Source: an uncultured bacterium (GTDB lineage: Bacteria; Patescibacteriota; Saccharimonadia; UBA4664). Taken from it: a stretch of 64,000 nucleotides of DNA. Each line of letters begins with the position of its first letter. Within the stretch, counting starts at the first letter, position 1. The DNA is taken from the NCBI GenBank assembly GCA_963720265.1, contig CAVRET010000002.1, positions 71,602 to 135,601 on the forward strand, given 5' to 3'. The notes under the pieces were generated by a model, which saw only the letters and a list, made by a program, of their open reading frames with translations, was not told the DNA's origin and searched no databases. A program made the translations under genes and the position numbers. This document shows positions 5,426 through 54,647 of this stretch, piece after piece.

Positions 5426-7525
<2,100 letters not shown>

Positions 7526-7691: not shown

Positions 7692-7745
7692 CATGCAACT
7701 CGTCAGCCCACTAGCCAAATCTCCCTAGGAGTGTGAACTGCACAC

Positions 7746-8036
7746 ATGACGAATGTTAACGCAGACCAGCTGGAGGCAGCTCAGCGCTCGCTCGACATCG
7801 ATCGAGCTGCGACTGAACAACTGGGCAGCCATCAGGCCGTTACGCTGATTCTGCTCGTGATAGCAGTGGGCGTTATGGGCTTCCAAAACATCTGGCTCCA
7901 GGCCGTCCATTGGCTGGCCATTACAGCCTGCCTCGTATCAGCAATCGTCCAGCTAATACGCGGCCGACGGTTGCGTCGAGGAATGCCCATGTCGGCCGCG
8001 GCTGCGCAGGACTTGATCGAAGCCGCCCGTGAGTGA
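7746..8036 (+). CDS. small two-TM membrane protein (hypothetical)
   Basis: The 96-aa ORF has two hydrophobic helices and sits downstream of the consensus promoter. Its RBS is weak or distant, so support is low. Confidence 0.3.
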   Translation: MTNVNADQLEAAQRSLDIDRAATEQLGSHQAVTLILLVIAVGVMGFQNIWLQAVHWLAITACLVSAIVQLIRGRRLRRGMPMSAAAAQDLIEAARE

Positions 8037-8152
8037 TGCGGTTTCACCGCGGGCACCCAAGCGGCGGTCGGTCGGGCATTAACGCTCTTCCGGCCGCCGC
8101 CTCGCATTTGAGCCGCTTTATTGCCCGCCGGTGATGTTGTATTATAACGCTA

Positions 8153-9682
8153 ATGTTTGAGAAAATTGTCTCGAAACTGTCGCTCTCGCCGTCGGCCGCC
8201 TCTGACCTGGCATTTTATGCGCGTCGGCTCAAGGCCGAGAGCGTTACGCGCACCTTTAGTGCCATTGCCGCCGTGCTTATTGTTGGACTGCAATTCGCAG
8301 TCATCACGGCCCCACCCACAGCTTCCAACGCCGCTTCGCCCAACGACATTATTTATGGAGGCATTGTCTCCAAAAATGATCTTCTTAACCATTACGACGA
8401 TAGCTCTGAGCTCAAAGCGCTTTACAACTACTTCGGCATTTCGCGCCAAGATATCGTCAACAGCAAAGTCACAACCATTAATTCTACAGACCACAGCTTA
8501 AAGTCGATCGGCCGCCTGCAGCACTTGTCCAGCGATCAAAAGCTCACCATTGGCGGTAACACCTACTGGTCACGCGGGCTCTACACCTGGGACACCGGTG
8601 CTAATGTCACACGCGGCTCCACCTACCAGGTACTCGAAGGCACCCGTTCCAAGGACGGTGGTTTCTTCGCGGTTATGTTTACCTGCGGCAACATCGTCTA
8701 CAAAACCATCCCGGCCCAACCGGCTCCACCGCCTCCGCCCAAGCCACCGACGCCTCCGCCCACGCCCGTGCCAACCAAGGCCGCGGTGGCCTGCAGCGAG
8801 CTCATTGGCAACGACACCACGGGCGAAACCGGTGGCCAAGCTCCGTTTACCGTCAACTATACCGGCATCGGCAGCGCCAGCGGCCAGACCATTACCGGCT
8901 ATGAGTTCGACTTTGGCGACAACGCCACGACAACACTACCCACCGGCCAAACCTCGCATACATATAATGCAGTGGGCACGTGGCTGGCCACGCTCCGCAT
9001 CCAAGGCTCAACCGGCACACTCTCAAGCATTCCCACGCTCTGCACCTTTAAGGTCAATGTTACGGCCCCGCCGGTCAGCTTCGCCCTCTCCAAGTCGGCC
9101 CTCAACTTGACCCAAAACATCGACGCCACCACTGCTCCCGCCAAGCCCGGCGATGTCATCCGCTACATTCTTGAGACCAAAAACACTGGCCAAATCGCGA
9201 GCAACTACACCGTCGTTGAGCACCTCGATTACGTTCTCCAATACGCCGACCTCACCGACGCCGGCGGCGGCACGCTCAACAATAATGTCATGACCTGGCC
9301 GGCCGCCGTCATTCAGCCCGGTGCCGTCCTCTCCGAGTCGTTCGAGGTAACGGTCAAAAACCCGATTCCAGACACACCCGTCGGCGTATCTGACCCGGCC
9401 AGTTACGACCTCACTATGAACAATGTCTATGGCAACGCGGTAAACGTCGCCGTCCAGCCGCCGATCCCGAAGCAAATCGAGGCCGCCTCGACCCAGCTGC
9501 CAGACACCGGTGCGGCCAGCAGCACATTAATAGTATTGATTGTGGCAGCGCTCACTCTCTTCTTCTACCTCCGCAACCGCCAGCTCATAACCGAAATCCG
9601 GCTCCTGCGCGGCGAACGCGGCGAATACCACGGACCGCACCACACCGGCGGACATCACCAAGGAGGTCAGCATCATGCCTGA
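8153..9682 (+). CDS. LPXTG-anchored surface protein with Pro-rich linker, PKD-like domain and DUF11/CARDB-like domain
   Basis: N-terminal signal anchor, a PPPPPKPPTPPPTPVP linker, an FDFGDN...HTY PKD-like segment and a DUF11-like repeat. The C-terminus is LPDTG followed by a hydrophobic helix and RNRQ, then an unusual extra 35-aa His-rich tail. Confidence 0.7.
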   Translation: MFEKIVSKLSLSPSAASDLAFYARRLKAESVTRTFSAIAAVLIVGLQFAVITAPPTASNAASPNDIIYGGIVSKNDLLNHYDDSSELKALYNYFGISRQDIVNSKVTTINSTDHSLKSIGRLQHLSSDQKLTIGGNTYWSRGLYTWDTGANVTRGSTYQVLEGTRSKDGGFFAVMFTCGNIVYKTIPAQPAPPPPPKPPTPPPTPVPTKAAVACSELIGNDTTGETGGQAPFTVNYTGIGSASGQTITGYEFDFGDNATTTLPTGQTSHTYNAVGTWLATLRIQGSTGTLSSIPTLCTFKVNVTAPPVSFALSKSALNLTQNIDATTAPAKPGDVIRYILETKNTGQIASNYTVVEHLDYVLQYADLTDAGGGTLNNNVMTWPAAVIQPGAVLSESFEVTVKNPIPDTPVGVSDPASYDLTMNNVYGNAVNVAVQPPIPKQIEAASTQLPDTGAASSTLIVLIVAALTLFFYLRNRQLITEIRLLRGERGEYHGPHHTGGHHQGGQHHA

Positions 9683-10262
9683 GCACGCACCCCAGCACTC
9701 TGAACACGGCGAGCATCACAAAGATACTGCTGAACTAAACTCATCCGAACAACTCGAACATGCCCAACGGCACGTCGAGGCAATGGCCAAATCCGGCGAA
9801 ACCGACTCGGCCGACCGCCGCGCTGAGCAAGCCCGCGAAATCATTCACAAGCGCGAACACGGGCCCGAACCTTCGCCCGCACCGGCCGCCGAATCCGAGC
9901 AGTCCCACGCCCGCCCATCGTTTACCCACCTCCTCAACCCCAAACTAAATTACACCGAGACCTTGGCCAGCATTCAGCACCGCCTCACTCCTATGAGCCG
10001 CTCATTTAGTAAGGTTATCCATGCCCCGGCAATCGAGAAAACCAGCGAGGCGCTCGAAAAAACGGTGGCCCGCCCATCGGTCACGGCCGGTGCCACCTGG
10101 ACCGCGCTCATCATTGGCTCCATCTTCTACTTCACGGCCCGGCGCTATGGGTATACGCTTTCCGGCTCCGAAATTGAACTCTCATTTGTTATCGGCGCCG
10201 TATTCGGCCTGTTCATCGAGTGGCTCTGGCGCACCTTCATCCGCCGGCCCCGCCACCACTGA
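9675..10262 (+). CDS. His-rich N-terminus, two C-terminal TM helices (hypothetical membrane protein)
   Basis: Its start overlaps the upstream stop (ATGCCTGA). It begins MPEHAPQHSEHGEHH and has two C-terminal hydrophobic helices. Confidence 0.5.
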   Translation: MPEHAPQHSEHGEHHKDTAELNSSEQLEHAQRHVEAMAKSGETDSADRRAEQAREIIHKREHGPEPSPAPAAESEQSHARPSFTHLLNPKLNYTETLASIQHRLTPMSRSFSKVIHAPAIEKTSEALEKTVARPSVTAGATWTALIIGSIFYFTARRYGYTLSGSEIELSFVIGAVFGLFIEWLWRTFIRRPRHH

Positions 10263-10962: not shown

Positions 10963-13900
10963 TCACTCGCCGATCATAACGTTGCCGTTTTCGTCCACAT
11001 AGACCTCACCCGGTGCGAGTTTCTTCGGCTTTTCGGTCTTCACCTCGTTCGATTCCATTGGCTTGGTACCGGCCGTAGGCAAAATCAGCTTGCCGGGCAC
11101 TGCAGCTCCCTCGGCTTCCCCCGTCGAGGCCTGGGCGGGCTGCTGTGGCTGCGGAGGCGGCGGCGGAGGTGCGGACGGCGGAGCCGGCTTGCTCTCCGGC
11201 GGCTCAATGACCTTTTCCTTGTGGCTACCGTGATTTGCCGGCGCGTTTTCCTTATTCTTGTCGCGGTCACGCCAGTGCCGACGCTTATTGGCCTTACGAT
11301 TATCCGTTGAAACTGGGCGCTCAGCCTTGTCATCTTTGGCCGGTTTAGTCGGTTCGGGTTCAGGAGGTGGGGCTTGGGGCGCAGCCACCACTTCACTGGG
11401 AACATCTAATTTTTGGCTAGCCTCGCGCTCAGCCCGAGCTTTAGCCACATCGTCAGCTGCCAACGATTCCGCCTGCGGTACGTCCAAGTCTAAATCGTCA
11501 GATGCTGTCTGGACCACCCCGGACACCGGCATAGCTGCAGGTTGCGGTTTCGGCACATCAGGTGGCACTCCCATCATTTGTCCCGGATGTTTAATAACGG
11601 CAGCCTCAGGCTCGGCTCGGGCTTGCTGGACTGTGAGCACCGGCTCAGGCGTAGCAGGTGCAGCCAGAGGAGATGGTGGTGTTGGCTCAGGCCGTGGGGG
11701 CGGTACAGGCTTTGGCGCAGGCACTGGCGGCAGAGGTTCGGGTGTGGGCTCACGCACAGGCTCGGGCGCAGGGGCCGGCGGTCCCTGCGAGGCCGGTTCG
11801 CGTACTGGCGCTGGCTGAGTCGGTACCGGTGGGGGCGGCGGGGGCGCGGATACCGGTACGGACTGCGGAGCTAACGCGGCCGCCTCAGCCGCCTCTTCAC
11901 GCTTCAACTCACGCTGCAATTCCTCGCGTTTCGACTCAATTGGCTCGGTCGGCTGAATCACCTTAATGCCATGATGTTCAGACACCGGGACCAGCTCTTC
12001 CTTGGGCTGCAACTTCGTCGTCTTCGGTATCGGTAACCGACGATGCCGCTCCACTGATGAATCAAGCAACGACGTTCCGACCAACGCGTCGATCTGCTTC
12101 TCGACCTCATTGATTTGCTCAGCAGCCTGCGGCTGTGGCGCCACTACCACGGGCTGAACCTCCGCCGGCTCAGGCGCAACCGGCTCAGGCGACAAGATAG
12201 GTTCAGGAGTGGATGGTGGCACGGGTCTAGGCGCCAAAGCGGGAGCCAGCCTTACAGCCGGGAGTGGCTCCGGCGCCGGTGGGGTGGGTTCTATGGCTGG
12301 TTGCTCAGGCTGAGGTTCAGGTTCCGGCACTGGTTGCGGAGCAGGTGCAGGGACTGTAACAGGAGCCGAAGACTCAGGTTCTGGTTCTAGCGCTGGTGGC
12401 GGAAGTGGAGGTTCCGGCATTGGCTCGGGTTGCGGTATAAGCTCCGGTTCCGGTTCTGGCACGGGCAGGGGCGGCGGAGTTGGCGCAGGCTCGGGCACTG
12501 TTGGCGCCGCAACCGCCGGCATTGATTGGTCAATAAACGTCACACCCGGCGGCAAACCCTCGGTTGACATCAGACCCGAATCCGCTGAGGCGGGTTGCTC
12601 CGGCGCCGGCTTCGCTCCCGGATCAAGTACTTGGATCAGGTCCTCAGCGCCCTCCTCACTCGGCTGTGGTGGGGGAGCTACTGACGGCTGCATAGCGGCA
12701 GACCCGGCAACGCTCGCCGGCAAGCCAGAATCCGCCGCCGGGCCCATCGTCGGCCGCGCCGGCGTCTTACCACCGGTAATGTCGCTCAGCGATAATGTTC
12801 CGGGCGCGCTTGGCGCACTCGACCCAACTGGAGGGCGTAATGGCGACGGGGGTGGCGGTGGCACTGGTGGAGCCTCAACCGTTACGGTTGGTGCCTGCGC
12901 CACCGGCGAAGCATACGTAGTCTCTTCCATGACAGGTAACGGCTGTGGGGGCTGTGGAATCTGCTGTACCGGCGCTACCGGTGCTGGAGGAGGTGGCATG
13001 GATGGTAAGGGTAGAGGTGGCAGTGAGACAGGGGCCGGCTGTGGTGGAGGCGGTGGCGGTACTGGAGGTGTTGGCGGCGGAGCAGGCGCAGCGGCTGACG
13101 CCACTCCTTGCCCGTACAGGTCGATCGGCTGCATTGCAGCTCCAGCAGGCTGAATGGGAGCAGGTGCCGGCGGAGGAACCGGTGCCACGGGCAACGGGGG
13201 CGCCTGAACGGCCGCTACTTGACCACCCAAGGCTCCGGCCATACCCGCGAGACCCACTTGAGTAGCGGGATTTACGGCTGCAGGCTGCGGAGCCGGTGGC
13301 GGTACGGCGACTGGTGGCGCAACCGACCGCGCCGGCCGACCTGATAGCCGGTCCAAAATATCTTGCTCGACTTGAGCCCGCGCGTGGCCGAACTTAGCCG
13401 CGCTCAGTTGCTTAATCGCCTGCCCCAGCTCCAGGTTCGCACTCCCCAACGGCGGCGAATCGCGAATCGTAAACGGTTGACTCGGCAACCCGCCAATCAT
13501 GAGCCGCATGGCCGCGTTAAAGTTTGGCAAGTTCACCAGATCCCCAGCATCAAACACCGGCGAAAATTGCTTTACCATGAACTCAGCGTCTTCCGGTCCC
13601 ATCCGGTGTGCCACAATCGTACCGATATTGCCAAACACCGCATCGCGAATCTCCGGCCTGAGTTGGCCGATAAACTGGTTCGCCACGATCAGATTCAACC
13701 GATATTTCCTAGCCTCGCTCAAAATGCTCGCAAAGCTGTCGGTCGAAAAATTCTGAAACTCATCCACGTACAGCGCAAAGTCCGGCCGCTGATCTTCCGG
13801 CACCTCAGCCCGGCTCATGGCCGCCGCCTGGAACTTAATCACAAAAATCATACCGAGCAGTTGTGAGTTGAGCTCCCCTATTCGCCCCTTGCTCAGGTTC

Positions 13901-24779: not shown

Positions 24780-25360
24780 AACCCCGCGAGGAACCCCGGA
24801 GCTTGCTCCGGGGAGGGATAGCGCCGGCGAGCACCTGTCCGCCTCTGGTGGACACAGCAGTCTTTCATTAGCACAATGGTGGTATGGACGTTCAAATCGG
24901 TGCCCACTGTCGGTATCAGATTCGGTACCATTTGGTATGGGGTGTCAAACTTCGACGCAAGGTACTGCTAGCCAACCGCAGCCAATACTTAAAGCGGGTG
25001 CTTGTCGAGATAGCCCAGGCTTACGACTGGGAGCTGGAAGCTGTTGGCACCGATGACGACCATGTCCATGTATTTATAGGTGCTCATCCAAAAATCGCGC
25101 CAGAGAAGTTGGTACAGATCTTAAAAAGCAAGAGCGCACGGGCCTTGTTTGTCCAGTTTCCCGAAGTCAAACAGTTCTTGTGGGGCGGTGCGATGTGGAG
25201 TGTCGGCTATTACATTAGGACCGTCTCTGACGGTCCGTTGGAAGGAGTTATAAAGACGTATGTTGAGCAACAAGGTAAGCACCGACCCACTCAGGCCAAA
25301 TCGTACCAACTGAAGCTGGTGCCCTAAGTGACAACCACGGAGCTTGCTCCGTGGGGGTGT
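24780..25360 (+). mobile_element. IS200/IS605-family insertion sequence (tnpA only)
   Basis: tnpA is flanked by near-identical direct-orientation hairpins. CCCCGGAGCttgCTCCGGGG lies at 24794-24813 and CCACGGAGCttgCTCCGTGG at 25335-25354. This is the typical subterminal LE/RE structure of Y1-transposase IS elements. Confidence 0.6.
24884..25327 (+). CDS. tnpA: IS200-like Y1 (HUH) transposase TnpA
   Basis: The 147-aa product contains YHLVWGVKLRRKVL, an HUH motif (DHVHVFI) and the catalytic-Tyr region (MWSVGYYI). Confidence 0.8.
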   Translation: MDVQIGAHCRYQIRYHLVWGVKLRRKVLLANRSQYLKRVLVEIAQAYDWELEAVGTDDDHVHVFIGAHPKIAPEKLVQILKSKSARALFVQFPEVKQFLWGGAMWSVGYYIRTVSDGPLEGVIKTYVEQQGKHRPTQAKSYQLKLVP

Positions 25361-26602: not shown

Positions 26603-26776
26603 ATCCAGTTCGTGATTAAGTTAAAATTACTTTAACTACTTCTCTTTCTTTTAAAGTTTATTAAAAAATTCGATAATAATAAGGTTGCAGCGTGATTGAA
26701 TTATCATTTTTTTGGCCAACGATAATGTTATAAAAACTGAAATTATTGCAGAAATTAAGTGTGATTTGGCAACATT

Positions 26777-26807
26777 AAAACCGCCTACGTCGACGTTAGG
26801 CGGTTTT
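26777..26807. terminator. bidirectional rho-independent terminator
   Basis: AAAA-CCGCCTAcgtcgacgtTAGGCGG-TTTT is near-palindromic and sits between the convergent small ORF and vapC. Confidence 0.4.
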
Positions 26808-26812
26808 AATGT

Positions 26813-26844
26813 TCGTCCTGTGCGGCCAGCTTCGAAACTGGCAC
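26813..26844. repeat. direct repeat copy 1 (30/32 identical to 27625-27656), flanking the vapBC cassette
   Basis: TCGTCCTGTGCGGCCAGCTTCGaAACTGGcAC. The repeat contains the internal hairpin CCAGcTTC/GAAcTGG. Confidence 0.5.
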
Positions 26845-26854
26845 ACCTCAGATG

Positions 26855-27253
26855 CTACAAGCCCTCTATGATGATCTCATCAAGACGAAGATTGGTAAGC
26901 ATTTTATCGTTAGTAATAAAGACCTCAGCCTTATGCTCAACTGCGGTTGCAATGTGAACAGCGTCATAACCATAAACCGCCCTCCCATAATGCTTAGTCA
27001 ATTCAATCGCACGCTCGCAGATCCTTAAACTAACTGGCATAAACTTAGTTGCGCCCAAATCCCGCAATGCAGCTACTAGCTCAGTAGGATCGCCTTCCTG
27101 CAACATCACGCCCGTAAGAAGCTCTTGCCACGCTAGAACTGATAATACAGCTCCCTCATGCTCGCCTCTCTGCACAATAGATTGTGCCGCTTTTGACCAG
27201 GAACTTGTGCCTTCGAGAGCGTAGATCAGTATATTTGTGTCGTAGGCTATCAC
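26855..27253 (-). CDS. vapC: PIN-domain toxin VapC
   Basis: It starts MIAYDTNILIY and has conserved acidic residues. It overlaps the antitoxin stop by 4 nt. Confidence 0.8.
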   Translation of the reverse strand: MIAYDTNILIYALEGTSSWSKAAQSIVQRGEHEGAVLSVLAWQELLTGVMLQEGDPTELVAALRDLGATKFMPVSLRICERAIELTKHYGRAVYGYDAVHIATAVEHKAEVFITNDKMLTNLRLDEIIIEGL

Positions 27254-27528
27254 GATTTAAGTCTGGGTTGCATTGAATCACGCAACGTCCTAGTGTATTC
27301 GGCCGCATCTTGACCACGATTAGTCCATAGACCAGGAAGAGTACCGAAACGCCTCTCGATGGGCAGCTTCTCAGAAATCTTTAGATCGCCGTCATCCGTG
27401 ACAGTAACCGTAATCCGAGACCCAGGTTTTAAATTGAGCTGCTCACGCAAGTTCCTAGGCAAAGTAACCTGACTCTGCGACGAAACCTTTAGTGTGTAGG
27501 AAGTGTTCTTCATACACTGAATATACAT
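27250..27528 (-). CDS. vapB: AbrB/SpoVT/MazE-type antitoxin (VapB)
   Basis: A swapped-hairpin barrel motif is present (YTLKVSSQSQVTLPRNLREQLNLKPGSRITV). An alternative start lies at 27513 (MKNTSY...). Confidence 0.7.
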   Translation of the reverse strand: MYIQCMKNTSYTLKVSSQSQVTLPRNLREQLNLKPGSRITVTVTDDGDLKISEKLPIERRFGTLPGLWTNRGQDAAEYTRTLRDSMQPRLKS

Positions 27529-27624
27529 GATAATGGTACTAAAGTAAAGGTAAACGATTTACTTTATATATGACAGCTCAATCGTAAACATCTTGTCTGC
27601 ACAATAAAAGCATAAGAATCTTGG

Positions 27625-27656
27625 TCGTCCTGTGCGGCCAGCTTCGGAACTGGGAC
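27625..27656. repeat. direct repeat copy 2 (partner of 26813-26844)
   Basis: TCGTCCTGTGCGGCCAGCTTCGgAACTGGgAC. Confidence 0.5.
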
Positions 27657-27667
27657 GACTTATCCAA

Positions 27668-28231
27668 TTAGGACTTCGTAAATAGCTCCTCAGTGTCCTT
27701 CAAAAATACATCCAGCATATCCTTCTCCGACAGCCCCTTGTTCTTGTGCCCCAAATCAGTACGCATACACAGAATCACTCGAGCCGCCGCCTTCAACACA
27801 TTTTGGCTATCAGCAACGGCTGACCGCCGGAACTCAACAAATGCCTTTAGCGTGTTATCACTCCACCAAAGAGACCCATTTACCATCGCGCTTCTTAGCA
27901 TATCTCTTACGAAATTCAGATCTTTTGCCTTATCCGGGTCCTGAGTCACGGCCCAAATGTCACTCATAAACTTCGAGCAGACTTCCTCCTTTCTCTGCGC
28001 CTGCTGGGCTTGAATCTGGAGTTCCCGATCTTTCAGCTTTGTTGACCGTGCCACCCAAACCGATCCCCCTACAGTAAGCACTGCCACGACCAGGGTAACA
28101 TTGAGGTGCTTTAGATCAGCTCCAAAACTCTGCCAGAGCCATCTCAAGAATAATAATGCCAACACTAATAGCCCCAACGAAACGACCAAACCGAGCATAA
28201 TCTGTGCTTTCGACGGCTTAACTCTAGCCAT
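27668..28231 (-). CDS. membrane protein, two N-terminal TM helices (hypothetical)
   Basis: A 187-aa ORF with no recognisable motif, in the low-GC island. Confidence 0.4.
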   Translation of the reverse strand: MARVKPSKAQIMLGLVVSLGLLVLALLFLRWLWQSFGADLKHLNVTLVVAVLTVGGSVWVARSTKLKDRELQIQAQQAQRKEEVCSKFMSDIWAVTQDPDKAKDLNFVRDMLRSAMVNGSLWWSDNTLKAFVEFRRSAVADSQNVLKAAARVILCMRTDLGHKNKGLSEKDMLDVFLKDTEELFTKS

Positions 28232-28284
28232 ATATCGTACCTCTTACCTTAATTCTCTAGCGCAACACTATACAGTCTGCGCAC

Positions 28285-28575
28285 CTATTTCTGATTTTTC
28301 TGCGTACACGTACTGTATGGAAGACAAAACTGATTGAATATCGTGCCAGCACTTTTGAGCAATGCAGCTCCAAAGAATAATGTGGCGAGTATAACCGCGA
28401 TGCCTATCGCGCAAGCCATCATCTGCCCCGGACTAAACTTACGCAACTCAGCCAGAAAGTTACGCCTTGGGTGAGGTTTCGGCTTTCTATCGACACGCTC
28501 AACTATCCGAGCTTGCCGGATGTCCGGAATTTTAGGATTCTTTGCACGCCTGAGGTCGCGCATAACTCGTAGCAT
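28285..28575 (-). CDS. small membrane protein (hypothetical)
   Basis: A 96-aa ORF with one TM helix. Support is weak. Confidence 0.3.
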   Translation of the reverse strand: MLRVMRDLRRAKNPKIPDIRQARIVERVDRKPKPHPRRNFLAELRKFSPGQMMACAIGIAVILATLFFGAALLKSAGTIFNQFCLPYSTCTQKNQK

Positions 28576-28926
28576 GATGGTTGATAACCCTCATATCTCC
28601 CATCGCTACGGCACTACTACCAAAGGTTCACCTATCCAAAAAATACTCTCTGTAAAGCCATAAAATTGGCTTCAGGCTATTGAACGGCCTACAAATTTCT
28701 GTTAACCTTTGGTTACGTCACAGTAGACTTAGGGGGATGATTAATTTTTCAAAATCTGACAAAAGATCTGGAGCTAAGGGGGCAAAGCGTCGCCAAACAC
28801 GTACCCCTATTTTTGTCATGTGTTATCATTCCTCCTACTGTGATTTAGTAATACTCCGGCCTTACCGCTTATGCTTGGCTTTGCAAAGCCACTAAAGCTA
28901 ATGACGGTTACATTATGGCCCGGCCC

Positions 28927-28962
28927 ATAGCCTCCTGACAAGTGGAGGCTATTTATTTTGGC
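28927..28962 (+). terminator. rho-independent terminator with no obvious upstream CDS (possible sRNA 3' end)
   Basis: ATAGCCTCC tgacaagt GGAGGCTAT followed by TTATTTTGGCGTCTTTTTTT. Confidence 0.4.
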
Positions 28963-29083
28963 GTCTTTTTTTATTCACGCCTATACTAGTCACACTACCT
29001 TATCTGATATACCCTGCCATCAGTAGACAGTGACCACATCTCGGTAGTCTCGATACCCTGCCTAGCTCTACATATGATATATT

Positions 29084-29812
29084 TTGCCCATGCTAACAAA
29101 ACAACAGATTATCGATGAGATTAAGCGCACTGCCAGTGACAACGAAGGCAAACCATTGGGAGAGCGCAAGTTCAAAAGCGAAACCGGTATCAGCTCATGG
29201 GATTGGGGCAAGTATTGGGCAAGGTTTGGTGATGCACGGAGAGAAGCTGGTTTTGAGCCCAACCAAAGAAATGTCGCCTATGAGGACGAGGTATTAAATG
29301 AGAAAGCCGTTGAGTTGATACGTAGCTTAGGCAAGCTACCCACATATCGCGAACTACATCTAGCCTCGGTGAATGACCTGGACTTTCCATCCATTCACGC
29401 GTTTCGAAGGCGTTATACGACTATACCTGGCCTTATCGAGGGGTTATACGAGTTCTATAAAGGCAAAGATGGCTATCAAGACATAGTTAGCCTTTGTATA
29501 CCTGTACTAGAGAACACTGTTGGGGCACCAGCTACTGCAAAAGATAACGCTAGTGCCGGTGAAGTTTACCTTGTCAAATCGGGCCGCTATTACAAGATCG
29601 GCATGACTCGTGACATTGTACGACGAGGAAGTGAACTTAGGATTCAGCTTCCAGAGCGAATGGACTTGATTCATTCAATTACTACCGATGACCCGAGTGG
29701 CATTGAATCCTACTCGCACAGACGTTTTGAGCCTAAGCGAATGAACGGTGAATGGTTTGACCTCACTTCTACCGAAGTTAAGGCATTTAAGCGTTGGAAG
29801 CGGATATACTAA
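29084..29812 (+). CDS. T5orf172/GIY-YIG-like (MUG113) domain protein
   Basis: The C-terminal half contains VYLVKSGRYYKIGMT...EL, a conserved His and an EWF motif, the T5orf172 hallmark of phage and mobile-element proteins. Confidence 0.6.
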   Translation: MPMLTKQQIIDEIKRTASDNEGKPLGERKFKSETGISSWDWGKYWARFGDARREAGFEPNQRNVAYEDEVLNEKAVELIRSLGKLPTYRELHLASVNDLDFPSIHAFRRRYTTIPGLIEGLYEFYKGKDGYQDIVSLCIPVLENTVGAPATAKDNASAGEVYLVKSGRYYKIGMTRDIVRRGSELRIQLPERMDLIHSITTDDPSGIESYSHRRFEPKRMNGEWFDLTSTEVKAFKRWKRIY

Positions 29813-30010
29813 GCGTACACTCTTTCAATTTCAGCTAGATCTGGTATCCTCTCTTTTTCTAAGAAGGAGGATTCAGTTTATGATGACTAACAACCGTATC
29901 TCAGCCCTTCCGACGGCTATTCAAATCATGTGGTCCACAGAGCGGGCTGAATCGCTTGGGGGACATGTCGGACGGCCAGATGTGCATGTGACTTATATAC
30001 AGGCTTATTC

Positions 30011-30808
30011 GTGATGACTACACAAGCCTTACCTACAACTGCGTATGTTAAGCGTCGTGCCTATGAACTAAGCGAGCGTGATCTTGCAATTCTCCAAACG
30101 TTAGCAAAAGTGAGGTTAGCGACCACTCGACAGTTACAGAGGTTACATGTTTATGAAGGCACTCCAATTGGTAACGCTCGAGTAACCGCTAGAGTCCTTA
30201 AACGGTTAGCAGATAACCAGATCCTCATTCGATTGCCCCGACAGGTTGGTGGTATAAGGGCGGGATCAGCGAGCATAGTGTTCACATTGGCTCGTCCTGC
30301 CATAGCATTACTCAACCCAGAATCGACCACGATAAGGACGCCATCCATTCCCGGCGACCAATACGTTGGTCACGCCCTGGCCGTCACTGAGCTGTATGCG
30401 AACTTAAAAGAAATCGAACGCGCTGGTCTGCTAACTGTAGTCCTATTTAAAGTTGAGCCGCGGCGGTCCGTCTCGATGTATATGAGCCGTAAACTACTGC
30501 GCCCAGACGCTTATGCCAAGATTCACATTGGCCAATACTCATACTCCTGGTTCATTGAAATGGATTTAGCAACTGAGCGTCGGCCGCAATTGAGACAAAA
30601 AATAGATAGCTACCTCAGGTACTGGGGTAACGGTAAGGAGCAGGCTCGCAACAGAGTATTCCCGAAAGTCCTTTTCTTAGTCCCCGACAGTAATCGCAAG
30701 ACGCTACTTGAAGAACTCATTATGCATGTACCTAGCTATGCGAGAGAACTGTTTCAAGTTGAACTGATTCAAGACTCACAAAACACTTTGAGTAAAGAGC
30801 ACGACTAA
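30011..30808 (+). CDS. replication-relaxation (Replic_Relax)-like protein
   Basis: N-terminal wHTH (LSERDLAILQTLAKVRLATTRQLQRL), a length of about 265 aa, and a position next to a recombinase. Family assignment is inference. Confidence 0.5.
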   Translation: MMTTQALPTTAYVKRRAYELSERDLAILQTLAKVRLATTRQLQRLHVYEGTPIGNARVTARVLKRLADNQILIRLPRQVGGIRAGSASIVFTLARPAIALLNPESTTIRTPSIPGDQYVGHALAVTELYANLKEIERAGLLTVVLFKVEPRRSVSMYMSRKLLRPDAYAKIHIGQYSYSWFIEMDLATERRPQLRQKIDSYLRYWGNGKEQARNRVFPKVLFLVPDSNRKTLLEELIMHVPSYARELFQVELIQDSQNTLSKEHD

Positions 30809-30896
30809 GCAAGCAGAACCGCATCGTGAAAGCTCCTTGCTTCCAGTTCCTGATCTGGTATCCTCTCTGATCCAATAACCAGGAGCAACCAAGCCT

Positions 30897-32714
30897 ATGA
30901 AGCAAGCCGTTATTTACGTTCGAGTCAGCACACTCGGCCAAGCTAAGCGAGACCGCGACCCTGAGGGCTACTCTATCCCCGCTCAGCGCGAAGCTTGTAC
31001 CCGAAAAGCCGAAAGCTTAGAAGCTACCGTTATCGCCGAATACGTAGATGCCGGTGAATCTGCCCGCTCTGCTGACCGTACGGAGCTACAACGTATGTTG
31101 AACTTTTTGCAACAGAATAGGTCTGTTGACTACGTAATCGTCCATAAAGTCGACCGTTTAGCCCGTAATCGTGAGGACGACGTTAATATCAACCTCGCCA
31201 TTCGCAAAGGTGGAGCCAAGCTTGTCTCATGTACTGAAAACATCGATGAAACCCCCTCCGGTCGTCTAGTCCATGGCATCATGGCTACCATCGCCGACTT
31301 CTATTCCTCCAATCTGGCCGCCGAAGTCGCCAAAGGCATGACCCAAAAAGCCAAGACCGGCGGCACAGTCACGCGCGCTCCACTCGGTTACACTAACCGT
31401 CACGAGCTTACCGATGGGCATGACATTCGCTGGGTGGATATCGATGAGAGCCGCGCCGATCTCGTCCGACTGGCTTTCAAGCTGTATGCCACCGGCGACT
31501 ACTCGCTAGTTGCCCTCGCAGAGATCTTAACTAAGAAGGGCTTACTATCGCGTGCGACCAAGCGCCACTCTGAACACGCTCTCACCAAAACCACGCTGGC
31601 GCAAATGTTAGCCAACCCGTATTACACCGGCATCACCACCTACCAAGGCGTTGAGTACCCCGGCAAGCACCCGGCGCTTATCGATCCTGGCCTCTTCGGG
31701 CAGGTTCAAGACGTACTAAAGGCCCGCTTAATTGGCGAAAAACAACGGGTGCACATGCATTACCTCAAGGGCACAATCTTCTGTGGCCGCTGCGGCTCAC
31801 GGCTGTGCGTGACTTACCAGAAACAACAATACTTGTACTACTTCTGTCTCGGTCGCTCCAAGAACAACGGTTGCACTCTACCTTACCTAAATGCCGACGA
31901 CATCGAAACCCAAATCACGCGCTATTACTCCCTGATTAAGCTAAGTAAAGCTGAAGGTGAGCATGTCCGCTCAGAAGTCCACACCTACATCAAAGAAAAC
32001 CAGGCCGACTTTACTACTGAGGCCAAGCGGCAACGGCTGCTGCTTGAACAGCTTGAAGCCGAGCATGCGAAATTGCTCCAAGCCTACTACGCCGGTTTTA
32101 TGCCACTCGATACCTTCGGTGCCGAGCAAAGCCGCATAGCAACCGCCAAACAACACGCCACTGAAACACTCGCCACAGCCGAGCAAGGATTTGACGACGT
32201 GGCTGGTAAATTAGACCAGGCCTTACATCTAATGCAAAACTGGAGTGAAGTGTATGAGGAAGCTCCCAAACGGCTCAGGCGCAAGCTGAACCAAGCCTTC
32301 TTTGAGGCTATCTATGTTCAAGAATCCGATGATCTCGTTACAACAAATGGGTCGCAACTGACCGAGCCATTCGCGGGCATTATGACGATCTCTGGCAGGC
32401 CTCGTGCCGCAATAACCAAAATGACTGCTCAGGTACGAAAAAACCAACCTGTTCGGTCGGTCCCTTCGAACATACCTGTTTTTTATACAGAAGGTTCCAA
32501 AGCGGAACCTCTGGTCGGGGTGAGAGGACTTGAACCTCCGACCTCAGCGACCCGAACGCTGCGCGCTTCCAACTGCGCCACACCCCGAAGGCCTCTGAAC
32601 CAAATAATAATAACCTTAAATTGCGAAGTTTGCCAGTCTAAGACCGCCCAAACCAGAACGGACGTGGCACTCTCACCTCATCGCCAGCGGGTCGGGCGCG
32701 TCTGGTTGAAGTGA
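30897..32714 (+). CDS. large serine recombinase (resolvase/invertase N-domain, recombinase domain, zinc ribbon)
   Basis: It starts MKQAVIYVRVSTLGQ with the catalytic Ser. It has the DRLARN motif, a recombinase domain and a CGRCGSRLCV...FCLG zinc ribbon. The last ~70 codons of the ORF run antisense through tRNA-Pro, so the true C-terminus is uncertain. Confidence 0.85.
   Translation: MKQAVIYVRVSTLGQAKRDRDPEGYSIPAQREACTRKAESLEATVIAEYVDAGESARSADRTELQRMLNFLQQNRSVDYVIVHKVDRLARNREDDVNINLAIRKGGAKLVSCTENIDETPSGRLVHGIMATIADFYSSNLAAEVAKGMTQKAKTGGTVTRAPLGYTNRHELTDGHDIRWVDIDESRADLVRLAFKLYATGDYSLVALAEILTKKGLLSRATKRHSEHALTKTTLAQMLANPYYTGITTYQGVEYPGKHPALIDPGLFGQVQDVLKARLIGEKQRVHMHYLKGTIFCGRCGSRLCVTYQKQQYLYYFCLGRSKNNGCTLPYLNADDIETQITRYYSLIKLSKAEGEHVRSEVHTYIKENQADFTTEAKRQRLLLEQLEAEHAKLLQAYYAGFMPLDTFGAEQSRIATAKQHATETLATAEQGFDDVAGKLDQALHLMQNWSEVYEEAPKRLRRKLNQAFFEAIYVQESDDLVTTNGSQLTEPFAGIMTISGRPRAAITKMTAQVRKNQPVRSVPSNIPVFYTEGSKAEPLVGVRGLEPPTSATRTLRASNCATPRRPLNQIIITLNCEVCQSKTAQTRTDVALSPHRQRVGRVWLK
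32512..32587 (-). tRNA. tRNA-Pro (anticodon CGG)
   Basis: Manual cloverleaf: acceptor CGGGGTG/CACCCCG, U8, D-stem GCGC/GCGC, anticodon stem CAGCG/CGCTG with loop TTCGGGT, T-arm GGAGG-TTCAAGT-CCTCT, discriminator A, and an encoded CCA. Length is 76 nt. Confidence 0.85.
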
Positions 32715-54086: not shown

Positions 54087-54464
54087 TGGTGGAGCTGCGG
54101 GGAATTGCACCCCGGTCCGCCGAGTCACACGACAGCGCACTACAGGTTTAGTCTACCTGGGAGTCTTAGCCAAGCGTCTGTGAGCAGACGAAACGGCGCT
54201 TGGAGCAGCCTCAAATCTTAGGGTTCGAGCAGAGGCGCACTCGAAACTGCAACCCGATAAATTGACACCGGCGAACCCCTACCGGGTATCAGGTGCCGAT
54301 GGCTTTCGTTATTAGGCGAAAGCAGGAGCGAGCGAAGGCATGCTAAAAGCAGACTTCACCCGCGAAAGAAAGTTGGCAATTGAGCTAACTTGATGGAATC
54401 TGACGTTTGCCTCCGACCTGCGCGTATGTCCTGTAAAATTCCCGACGTCGAAGCTGATCAGCCC
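54087..54464 (-). ncRNA. ssrA: tmRNA (ssrA)
   Basis: The 5' end is GGGGCUGAUCAGCUUCGACGUCGGG (E. coli begins GGGGCUGAU...UUCGACGGG). The 3' end is GGACCGGGGUGCAAUUCCCCGCAGCUCCACCA (E. coli ends ...CCAGCUCCACCA). The acceptor stem has the G3-U70 Ala identity pair. An internal tag frame ends ...PSLAPAFA-TAA-TAA. Confidence 0.8.
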
Positions 54465-54647
54465 CACGTTTATGGACCAAAGTATAGCATATTGAGCTAA
54501 TTGAGGCAAGAATAAGCATAAGAAGTGTTGTGGTAAAAACGACGTTTTAACAAAAACTGCTTGCCTGTGTCCAAGCTTTTTGGTGCAACCGCCGAAGCAC
54601 TATGGCAGCCGCTTCCCTACCATTATGGGCATAAGGAGGAACGTTAA

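Follow-up and report, generated by a model that had tools for sequence, protein, structure and literature searches.

A toxin–antitoxin operon tightly enclosed by two nearly identical direct repeats raises the question of whose ends those repeats are. Such a locus occurs in a 64,000-nucleotide stretch of DNA (the window) from an uncultured bacterium of the Saccharimonadia (lineage UBA4664; assembly GCA_963720265.1, contig CAVRET010000002.1, positions 71,602 to 135,601 of the forward strand), in which a vapBC module lies between two copies of a repeat of about 32 bp. A preliminary description of this sequence viewed the bracket as a toxin–antitoxin mini-cassette, acquired or duplicated by site-specific or recombination-mediated insertion, or alternatively as a repeated operator or a repetitive extragenic palindromic (REP)-like element. 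The anatomy of the locus and its comparison with metagenomic loci and contigs (numbered L001, L021 and so on) suggest different ownership of the repeats. They are probably the element-borne arm (P) of the attachment (att) site of a large serine recombinase (LSR), with the copy downstream of vapC (copy 1) forming an attR-type end of a larger island and the copy upstream of vapB (copy 2) marking a junction between stacked elements.

The repeat pair is distinct from chance similarity. Two exact matches to the degenerate 32-mer, at 26813–26844 and 27625–27656, lie on the plus strand in direct orientation and are identical at 30/32 positions; 100 dinucleotide-preserving shuffles yielded no match at all. 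Copy 1 follows the vapC stop by 10 nt and copy 2 precedes the vapB ATG by 96 nt, much as first described (10 nt and ~100 nt). A repeat finder stretches the pair to 35 nt at 91% identity (26810–26844 and 27622–27656; repeat D16). Comparison of 11 copies defines a conserved unit of 32 nt, with a sharp start at CCAG and an end at ...CGA(C/A)CA, which reads CCAGTTCCGAAGCTGGCCGCACAGGACGACCA on the minus strand. In the window this unit occupies 26810–26841 and 27622–27653, 3 nt off the coordinates first given. Copy 1 (minus strand) reads CCAGTTTCGAAGCTGGCCGCACAGGACGAACA, with two mismatches to the consensus, and copy 2 (minus strand) equals the consensus and the copies in L023, L021 and L027. No third copy exists in the 64-kb window with up to 8 mismatches allowed.

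Both copies lie within a 5.7-kb low-GC island (26810–32511; GC 0.44–0.49 vs ~0.55) inserted at the 3′ end of a tRNA-Pro(CGG) gene (32512–32587, minus strand; 3′ end ...CACCCCGACCA). This tRNA gene is the integration target and the attL side of the island; copy 1 is the island-terminal P arm and copy 2 an internal one. The tRNA is followed by an element-side segment, P′ (32432–32511, minus strand), that begins GAGGTTCCGCTTTGGAAC, runs as GAGGTTCCGCTTTGGAAC...AAAAAACAGGTATGTTCGAAGG, contains two hairpins and is antisense to the 3′ end of a recombinase open reading frame (ORF). That ORF (30897–32714, plus strand) encodes a 605-aa LSR with the catalytic serine motif YVRVSTLGQ at its N-terminus and resolvase catalytic, recombinase and zinc-ribbon domains (Pfam Resolvase, E 1.4e-31; Recombinase, E 1.7e-13; Zn_ribbon_recom, E 1.3e-11), and it matches the catalytic domain of TP901-1 integrase (3bvp, E 4.4e-13). 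Its identity is 88% to the L021 recombinase and 80–87% to that of L023. A Replic_Relax (replication-relaxation) protein (30011–30808, plus strand; Pfam E 1e-31) is encoded nearby, and the two genes occur together in L001, L016/L017, L021 and L023. The LSR ORF runs antisense through P′ and the whole tRNA-Pro gene, so that antisense tRNA and host DNA specify its last ~60 residues (...RGLEPPTSATRTLRASNCATP...). The homologous ORF of L023 (1130–2413) ends instead 19 nt past a P arm; the C-terminal tail of the recombinase therefore appears to depend on integration state.

The other end of the island has the appearance of an interrupted host locus. Empty sites, which the preliminary description had proposed to look for in related strains, occur in relatives of other species (L030–L033, only ~83% identity in RmuC) and consist of tRNA-Pro, a terminator, an AT-rich spacer and MarR-RmuC, with neither repeat nor island. 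In the window, a host-type terminator and then an AT-rich spacer lie directly beyond copy 1, as in these empty sites. The terminator is a strong, bidirectional hairpin (26771–26813; AAAACCGCC...GGCGGTTTT) that abuts copy 1. This hairpin probably served tRNA-Pro as its terminator before integration, and would represent the B′ side of attB, because in the empty sites the terminator follows tRNA-Pro directly and is itself followed by the AT-rich spacer and MarR. Absence of the island from these sites, together with the GC contrast, indicates insertion at the tRNA gene.

What points to the repeat as an att arm is the company that P′ keeps. The same P′ that follows the tRNA in the window also follows the repeat downstream of vapC in L021 and L023 and follows two further copies in L021; either the tRNA end or the 32-mer can therefore stand to the left of P′. 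Three junction types occur, namely tRNA–P′ (window, L021), P–P′ (L021, L023) and P–host flank (window, L027). These would correspond to attL, to attP or a tandem junction, and to attR, respectively, which is the expected pattern of half-site exchange by a serine recombinase around a short core, CGACCA; the P–P′ junctions may derive from circles or from tandem arrays. Across the last 32 nt of tRNA-Pro, 13/32 positions match the repeat and contiguous identity is confined to the final 6 nt, CGACCA. Duplication of the tRNA 3′ end, as produced by tyrosine integrases, is thereby rejected, and so short a core fits serine-recombinase sites. A tRNA or tmRNA fragment is also rejected as the source of the repeat: its TTCGAA stem resembles a T-arm, but loop and stem lengths misfit and only CGACCA matches tRNA-Pro, and ARAGORN and Rfam found nothing over the repeat. 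Nor do frames inspected by hand support a coding remnant across the repeat; the one exception is that recombinase ORFs happen to cross the att region in antisense.

In each of the three P–P′ junctions tested, the P block GTTCCGAAGC mirrors the P′ block GCTTTGGAAC at positions 14–23 either side of a centre at position 27, within ...GGACGA..., and the outer block agrees at 9–10 of 10 positions. The CCAG edge of every copy lies ~26 nt from this centre. The size and geometry of the repeat edge relative to the centre fit an attP half-site of serine integrases. This mirror symmetry is compatible with the att model, and is not proof of it.

A simple sequence of events would connect these observations. 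A circular element would carry attP as P followed by P′, with P′ overlapping the 3′ end of the recombinase gene, and would read ...GCACAGGACGA(A/C)CA directly followed by GAGGTTCCGCTTTGG at the junction. The LSR would bind these arms and cross over within CGACCA, the 6 nt common to P and the 3′ end of tRNA-Pro(CGG). After integration, P′ would follow the tRNA (attL, 32511/32512), and the P arm would land at the far end of the island beside the former terminator of the tRNA, as copy 1 (attR, 26810–26841). Copy 2 (27622–27653) would be a second P arm, located where two elements meet in a head-to-tail stack. The first of these would be an autonomous 4.9-kb element with genes for the LSR, Replic_Relax, a T5orf172-like protein and 96-aa and 187-aa proteins, which ends in copy 2. 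The second would be an integrase-less, ‘cis-mobilizable-like’ element of 812 bp that comprises a spacer (X′), the vapB promoter/operator, vapBC and the P arm of copy 1. The composite would be inherited, and probably moves, as one unit. Excision of the whole island would restore an attB that reads ...CTCTCACCCCGACCA joined to TTAAAACCGCCTAACG, and excision of the 4.9-kb element alone via copy 2 would leave a tRNA–X′ junction, ...CCCCGACCA joined to AGATTCTTATGC.

If the repeat belongs to such islands, its occurrence elsewhere should follow them, and a much wider search bears on the question of whether it is instead a generic element. A search with the 20-mer core across 185,579 species genomes gave 8 matches, none of which extends past the 20-mer, and these are taken as chance matches in high-GC coding DNA; two scans of viral contigs and a scan of plasmids gave zero matches to the repeat. 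Three matches were obtained in a metagenome scan, of which one arose by chance and the others lie at tRNA-Pro arrays (L026/L027), where the order is tRNA-Pro, an AbiEii type IV toxin–antitoxin cassette, a perfect 32-mer and then host flank genes. A copy lies upstream of vapB in all six lineages examined; besides the window it is present in L021, L023 and L024 and is truncated or degenerate in L022 and L042. The copy downstream of vapC is also present in L021 and L023. These vapBC loci are tRNA-Pro(CGG)-linked islands, or remnants of islands, with the same LSR and Replic_Relax pair, and L021 and L022 share the host flanks of the window (UvrD/AddB-like ... tRNA-Pro ... MarR-RmuC-tRNA-synt_1b). 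Relatives of the flanking RmuC gene assign the host to the Saccharimonadia (TM7). In these related loci the 32-mer always forms the distal end of the cargo at tRNA-Pro, whether vapBC (in several lineages), the AbiE cassette or an HD-domain gene.

This distribution makes it very improbable that the repeat is a generic REP-like or terminator-like element, a post-stop regulatory RNA motif or the VapB operator. Such a role would suit the position of both copies 10–14 nt past a minus-strand stop codon; copy 2 lies not only upstream of vapB but also 14 nt past the stop of an upstream 187-aa ORF, which the preliminary description missed. It would also suit the short CCAG/CTGG stem in each copy. The internal hairpin described earlier does exist as this 4-bp stem, but the fold of copy 2 is no better than that of shuffled sequence (z −0.4 to −0.65), and variants disrupt the stem without compensating changes. 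Strong folding around copy 1 (−37.8 to −42.8 kcal/mol, z −5.1 to −6.4, for the 91-nt stretch 26770–26860, which holds the hairpin and copy 1) is due to the adjacent terminator hairpin at 26771–26813. An outer stem of copy 2 (GTCGTCC/GGACGAC) was rejected as a feature; it is found in the window only and is conserved at no other locus. No Rfam match or terminator-like site was found in the repeat, the two copies in the window both lie in the island, and every other copy found lies in a tRNA-Pro array, with only chance 20-mer matches in species genomes and none in viral contigs or plasmids. The REP-like alternative of the preliminary description is not borne out in any of the collections searched. 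Its repeated-operator alternative fails for another reason. Copy 1 is downstream of vapC, copy 2 is outside the promoter-like hexamers, and a different inverted repeat occupies the vapB promoter.

This inverted repeat (27541–27566, minus strand) has perfect 8-bp arms, AAAGTAAA-N10-TTTACTTT, and overlaps the promoter-like hexamers upstream of vapB, whose sites run from 27554 to 27527. It is kept in six diverged lineages (window, L021, L022, L023, L024 and L042) and is probably the vapB promoter together with a putative VapB operator, distinct from the 32-mer. The gene that it precedes, vapB (27250–27528, minus strand), encodes an AbrB/MazE-type antitoxin (Pfam MazE_antitoxin, E 9e-12), and its true start is likely at 27513, since the gene calls of relatives (L021–L024) give 87 aa. 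The partner gene vapC (26855–27253, minus strand) encodes a PIN-domain toxin (Pfam PIN, E 1.6e-17). VapC relatives at 79–86% identity sit in islands of the same kind among the metagenomic loci. The 812-bp unit at 26810–27621 holds the vapB promoter, vapB and vapC only, and is without recombination or transfer genes of its own. Between the vapC stop and the downstream repeat there are 13 nt in the window (26842–26854) vs 64–68 nt in L021 (8400–8463) and L023 (1083–1150); the window lineage has lost ~52 nt there.

Conservation differs sharply among the parts of this arrangement. Between lineages, the 32-mers are 91–100% identical, vapBC coding DNA is 79–87% identical, the spacer is ~70% identical and the outer flanks are unalignable. 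Both copies of the 32-mer appear to be under constraint or homogenised, because they are far more conserved than vapBC, the spacer and the flanks. Recent insertion at this locus is contradicted by retention of the two-copy bracket in lineages whose vapBC DNA has diverged by 13–21%; the bracket is therefore old and inherited, and the P–X′–vapBC unit is ancestral to the vapBC clade. The proposal of site-specific acquisition fares better, in that the repeat is tied to an LSR island at tRNA-Pro, vapBC is cassette-like and other cassettes are bounded by the repeat elsewhere. As a description of a self-contained mini-cassette it falls short, however, for the repeats appear not to be the module's own: copy 1 terminates the 5.7-kb island on its distal side, and copy 2 marks an internal junction.

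Stacking of such islands is most evident in L021, which has five same-strand copies of the repeat at 6528, 7600, 8464, 9029 and 9756. A tblastn search with the window LSR finds a full gene (88% identity) that adjoins the tRNA, a remnant (residues 303–529) right after the P–P′ junction at 6528 and another (residues 363–544) right after the junction at 8464. One full gene and two remnants between repeats imply at least three stacked islands in differing states of decay. In the window, likewise, an intact LSR element adjoins the vapBC unit. Both vapBC (7741–8399) and an HD_3 gene in L021 are bracketed in the same way, by the repeat and X′ (AGATTCTTAT...) on the left and by the repeat and P′ on the right. 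The X′ spacer of the window (27529–27621, minus strand), on the right flank of copy 2, is ~70% identical among vapBC cassettes, and its first 11 nt (AGATTCTTAT...) are those that also follow the repeat copy ahead of the HD_3 gene. Local alignments against shuffles confine the resemblance of X′ to P′ to ~15 nt, which is not significant; X′ as a decayed P′ is rejected on this test and kept as conjecture only.

Arrays of this kind invite a more dynamic reading, which we consider rather unlikely, in which the vapBC unit moves on its own as a non-autonomous mini-cassette: the LSR would act in trans on P arms to insert and excise an 812-bp circle with one P–X′ site, and the DNA downstream of tRNA-Pro would behave like the cassette array of an integron. 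Different cargoes (vapBC, HD_3 and AbiE) all share this 32-mer as their end, the first 11 nt of X′ recur after the repeat ahead of two of them, the internal copy is conserved as well as the terminal one, and vapBC is distal to the full island in the window and ahead of the full island in L023. Against such mobility, P–X′–vapBC is inherited vertically with the islands: its spacer is homologous at ~70% identity in three lineages, and VapC has diverged to an extent comparable with the LSR. Every vapBC unit found lies in a tRNA-Pro array, and circular forms were not seen. L022 and L042 have a truncated or degenerate upstream copy, and in these two loci and L024 no copy was found downstream, which resembles decay more than active exchange of cassettes. 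Recombination between two attP-type half-sites is, to our knowledge, not a reaction of any known serine integrase. It is equally doubtful that Saccharimonadia keep a serine-recombinase-driven, integron-like array after tRNA-Pro(CGG), from which the LSR would capture, shuffle and excise integrase-less units in trans. That these units (vapBC, AbiE, the HD-domain gene and others) would all terminate in one common 32-bp site and be handled by the LSR of a resident or incoming element is improbable to the same degree. Static sequence does not separate accretion with decay from movement of cassettes in trans.

A still less probable origin of copy 2 is internal duplication, or homologous or illegitimate recombination within one island, for example by capture of vapBC beside attP with a duplicated site. 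Copy 2 would then be without present function and would be kept similar to copy 1 by gene conversion. That X′ is not P′-like, that the arrangement is ancestral to the whole vapBC clade and that conversion can homogenise direct repeats separated by 812 bp are all in keeping with this idea. It is weakened by the fact that copy 2 is 100% identical to its counterparts from distant lineages (L023, L027 and the L021 copy at 8464), which would demand conversion or selection in each. Moreover, L021 brackets a different gene in the same manner and has true tandem islands with LSR remnants, so accretion demonstrably occurs among these islands. Stacking of an integrase-less vapBC element on an LSR island is the account that we favour.

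Several points weigh against this account. No excision or circular junction was directly observed, and the vapC–repeat–LSR junction of L023 represents either a tandem array or a circle. The vapBC unit has a 32-nt P arm on both sides, but the right half of its left junction, X′, has no P′ motif at the proper spacing and is not significantly P′-like, so that copy 2, though perfectly conserved, is not clearly recognisable as an intact att site. The model serine integrases phiC31 and Bxb1 are not known to recombine attP with attL; stacking would therefore need relaxed specificity of the Ccr type or homologous recombination via the P′/LSR region. Copy 1 and the L021 copy at 9756 read GAACA rather than GACCA, and the exact crossover point thus cannot be fixed. 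The P–P′ symmetry is modest, its centre is not the single best-scoring one and P′ is itself palindromic. In addition, the copy count of the 32-mer in the source genome covers the 64-kb window rather than the whole genome, and the distance of the empty-site relatives (~83% in RmuC) is considerable.

Comparable arrangements are known in other bacteria, and the closest described system is that of the Dehalococcoides ssrA islands. In these islands a CcrB-like serine integrase gene on the reverse strand adjoins attL at a tRNA-like gene, tandem islands are bounded by direct repeats and 15 integrase-less islands have been proposed to be cis-mobilizable (McMurdie et al. 2011, PMC3146451). The likenesses are a reverse-strand LSR gene beside attL at the 3′ end of a tRNA-like gene, tandem repeat-delimited islands, a conserved motif that flanks the repeat on its element side and is unalignable with the target gene, and many islands without an integration module that are read as cis-mobilizable. 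The differences lie in the target, which here is tRNA-Pro(CGG) and not ssrA, in a host from the Saccharimonadia (candidate phyla radiation), and in an LSR and Replic_Relax pair in place of the six-gene DsiB/DsiA module. The repeat here is a 32-nt element-derived sequence with only 6 nt in common with the target, unlike the 20-bp copy of the target 3′ end in Dehalococcoides, and the cargo is toxin–antitoxin or defence-like instead of reductive dehalogenases.

The cis-mobilizable element (CIME)/accretion model developed for ICESt1/ICESt3 of Streptococcus thermophilus (Pavlovic 2004 and Bellanger 2011, reviewed in PMC5704250) envisages a three-step history of integration, decay to a CIME and second integration (PMC5704250). 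As in that model, an element that lacks recombinase and transfer genes and has att-type repeats shares its target with a related autonomous element, to which it lies in tandem. CIME systems use tyrosine integrases, and both of their ends are full att sites with a segment of target identity, whereas the integrase here is of the serine type, the left junction (P–X′) is not recognisable as a complete site and cis-mobilization is putative. SCCmec/ECC elements, in which Ccr large serine recombinases act at rlmH and multiple attR sites occur (PMC6222049), are also inserted by serine recombinases at a conserved gene's 3′ end; one locus can hold several attR sites or their remnants, and the cargo varies widely. 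Their att sites are ~50-bp direct repeats (PMC6222049); unlike the islands described here, they have two recombinases (CcrA/B), a protein-gene target, a size of tens of kb and repeats that share a central motif with the target.

Integron cassettes offer a further parallel: small cargo units, with or without a promoter and often toxin–antitoxin modules, end in a conserved recombination site and form a one-orientation array that adjoins a recombinase gene. Neither IntI nor attI is present here, however, the 32-mer has no attC palindrome (R″/L″/L′/R′) or GTTRRRY core, and the array is anchored on a tRNA gene and a serine recombinase. An integron cassette was accordingly rejected, with no tyrosine-integrase domain in any ORF tested across 24.6–32.7 kb and an adjacent recombinase of the serine type. 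An attC site (an imperfect palindrome of 57–141 bp with RYYYAAC/GTTRRRY cores) was rejected as well, the unit being 32 nt long with a 4-bp stem and no GTTRRRY on either strand. A literature search for islands of this kind in Saccharibacteria found no description.

The tRNA gene itself attracts other insertions. An unrelated serine-recombinase island with a major facilitator superfamily (MFS) transporter occupies the same tRNA-Pro in L028 (4132–8295), and other small cargo lies at tRNA-Pro(CGG) in L034–L038; because of these insertions, the 3′ end of tRNA-Pro(CGG) is a general insertion hot spot in Saccharimonadia. A similar LSR and Replic_Relax island in L016/L017 lies at tRNA-Leu, and its recombinase ORF again overlaps the tRNA.

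The remaining cargo of the window island includes a protein (29084–29812, plus strand) with a MUG113/T5orf172 (GIY-YIG-like) domain (Pfam E 5.8e-16) and two small ORFs without assigned function, of 96 aa and 187 aa. The 187-aa protein (27668–28231, minus strand) has no Pfam or PADLOC match, and PADLOC gave zero matches for the island proteins. Its homologues (L010–L020) are encoded directly downstream of Type ISP restriction enzymes or beside GmrSD-like genes, and it may be an uncharacterised defence-associated protein because these neighbourhoods resemble defence islands. There is no repeat near these homologues, and the repeat does not travel with that gene. Beyond the island, an IS200-like Y1 transposase gene (24884–25327; Pfam E 6.5e-33) is situated between RmuC and MarR and has a copy of the same GC-rich hairpin on each side (24792–24816 and 25333–25357); the interval 24792–25357 probably represents an insertion of the IS200/IS605 family. 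A GC-rich stretch (0.60–0.64) at 11100–13400 contains dense, imperfect repeats of glycine-rich coding sequence (GGN-rich; repeat families D1–D4) and probably encodes a repetitive surface or secreted protein. A tmRNA gene (54087–54465, minus strand; Rfam 89.9 bits) lies beside a slightly low-GC patch, and a second island there was rejected, the neighbours being ordinary metabolic genes (2-hydroxyacid dehydrogenases and a glycosyltransferase).

The repeat bracket around vapBC is thus best explained as the footprint of site-specific integration and element stacking at a tRNA gene. The island is most likely a new case of an arrangement already known in kind, with an integrase-less vapBC passenger stacked on an LSR island. 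It defines a hitherto undescribed family of small (~5 kb) LSR and Replic_Relax islands in Saccharimonadia, ultra-small episymbionts from which few mobile elements are known. It also provides a candidate attP (the 32-mer and ~20 nt of P′) and attB (the tRNA-Pro 3′ end and terminator) for a new serine integrase; att pairs serve as genome-engineering reagents, and this host group is without genetic tools. If an array moved in trans did prove to exist, it would represent a cassette system with a mechanism of its own, unrelated to that of IntI/attC integrons, in a group of bacteria whose genomes are very small and for which few descriptions of mobile elements exist. The vapBC module most likely acts as an addiction module, an idea that the literature on toxin–antitoxin systems of integrative elements backs in general (PMC5704250), and this proposed role would account for its survival in decayed arrays (L022, L024 and L042). 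Persistence of vapBC at the distal end of such arrays may therefore be a natural illustration of addiction holding island fragments in place.

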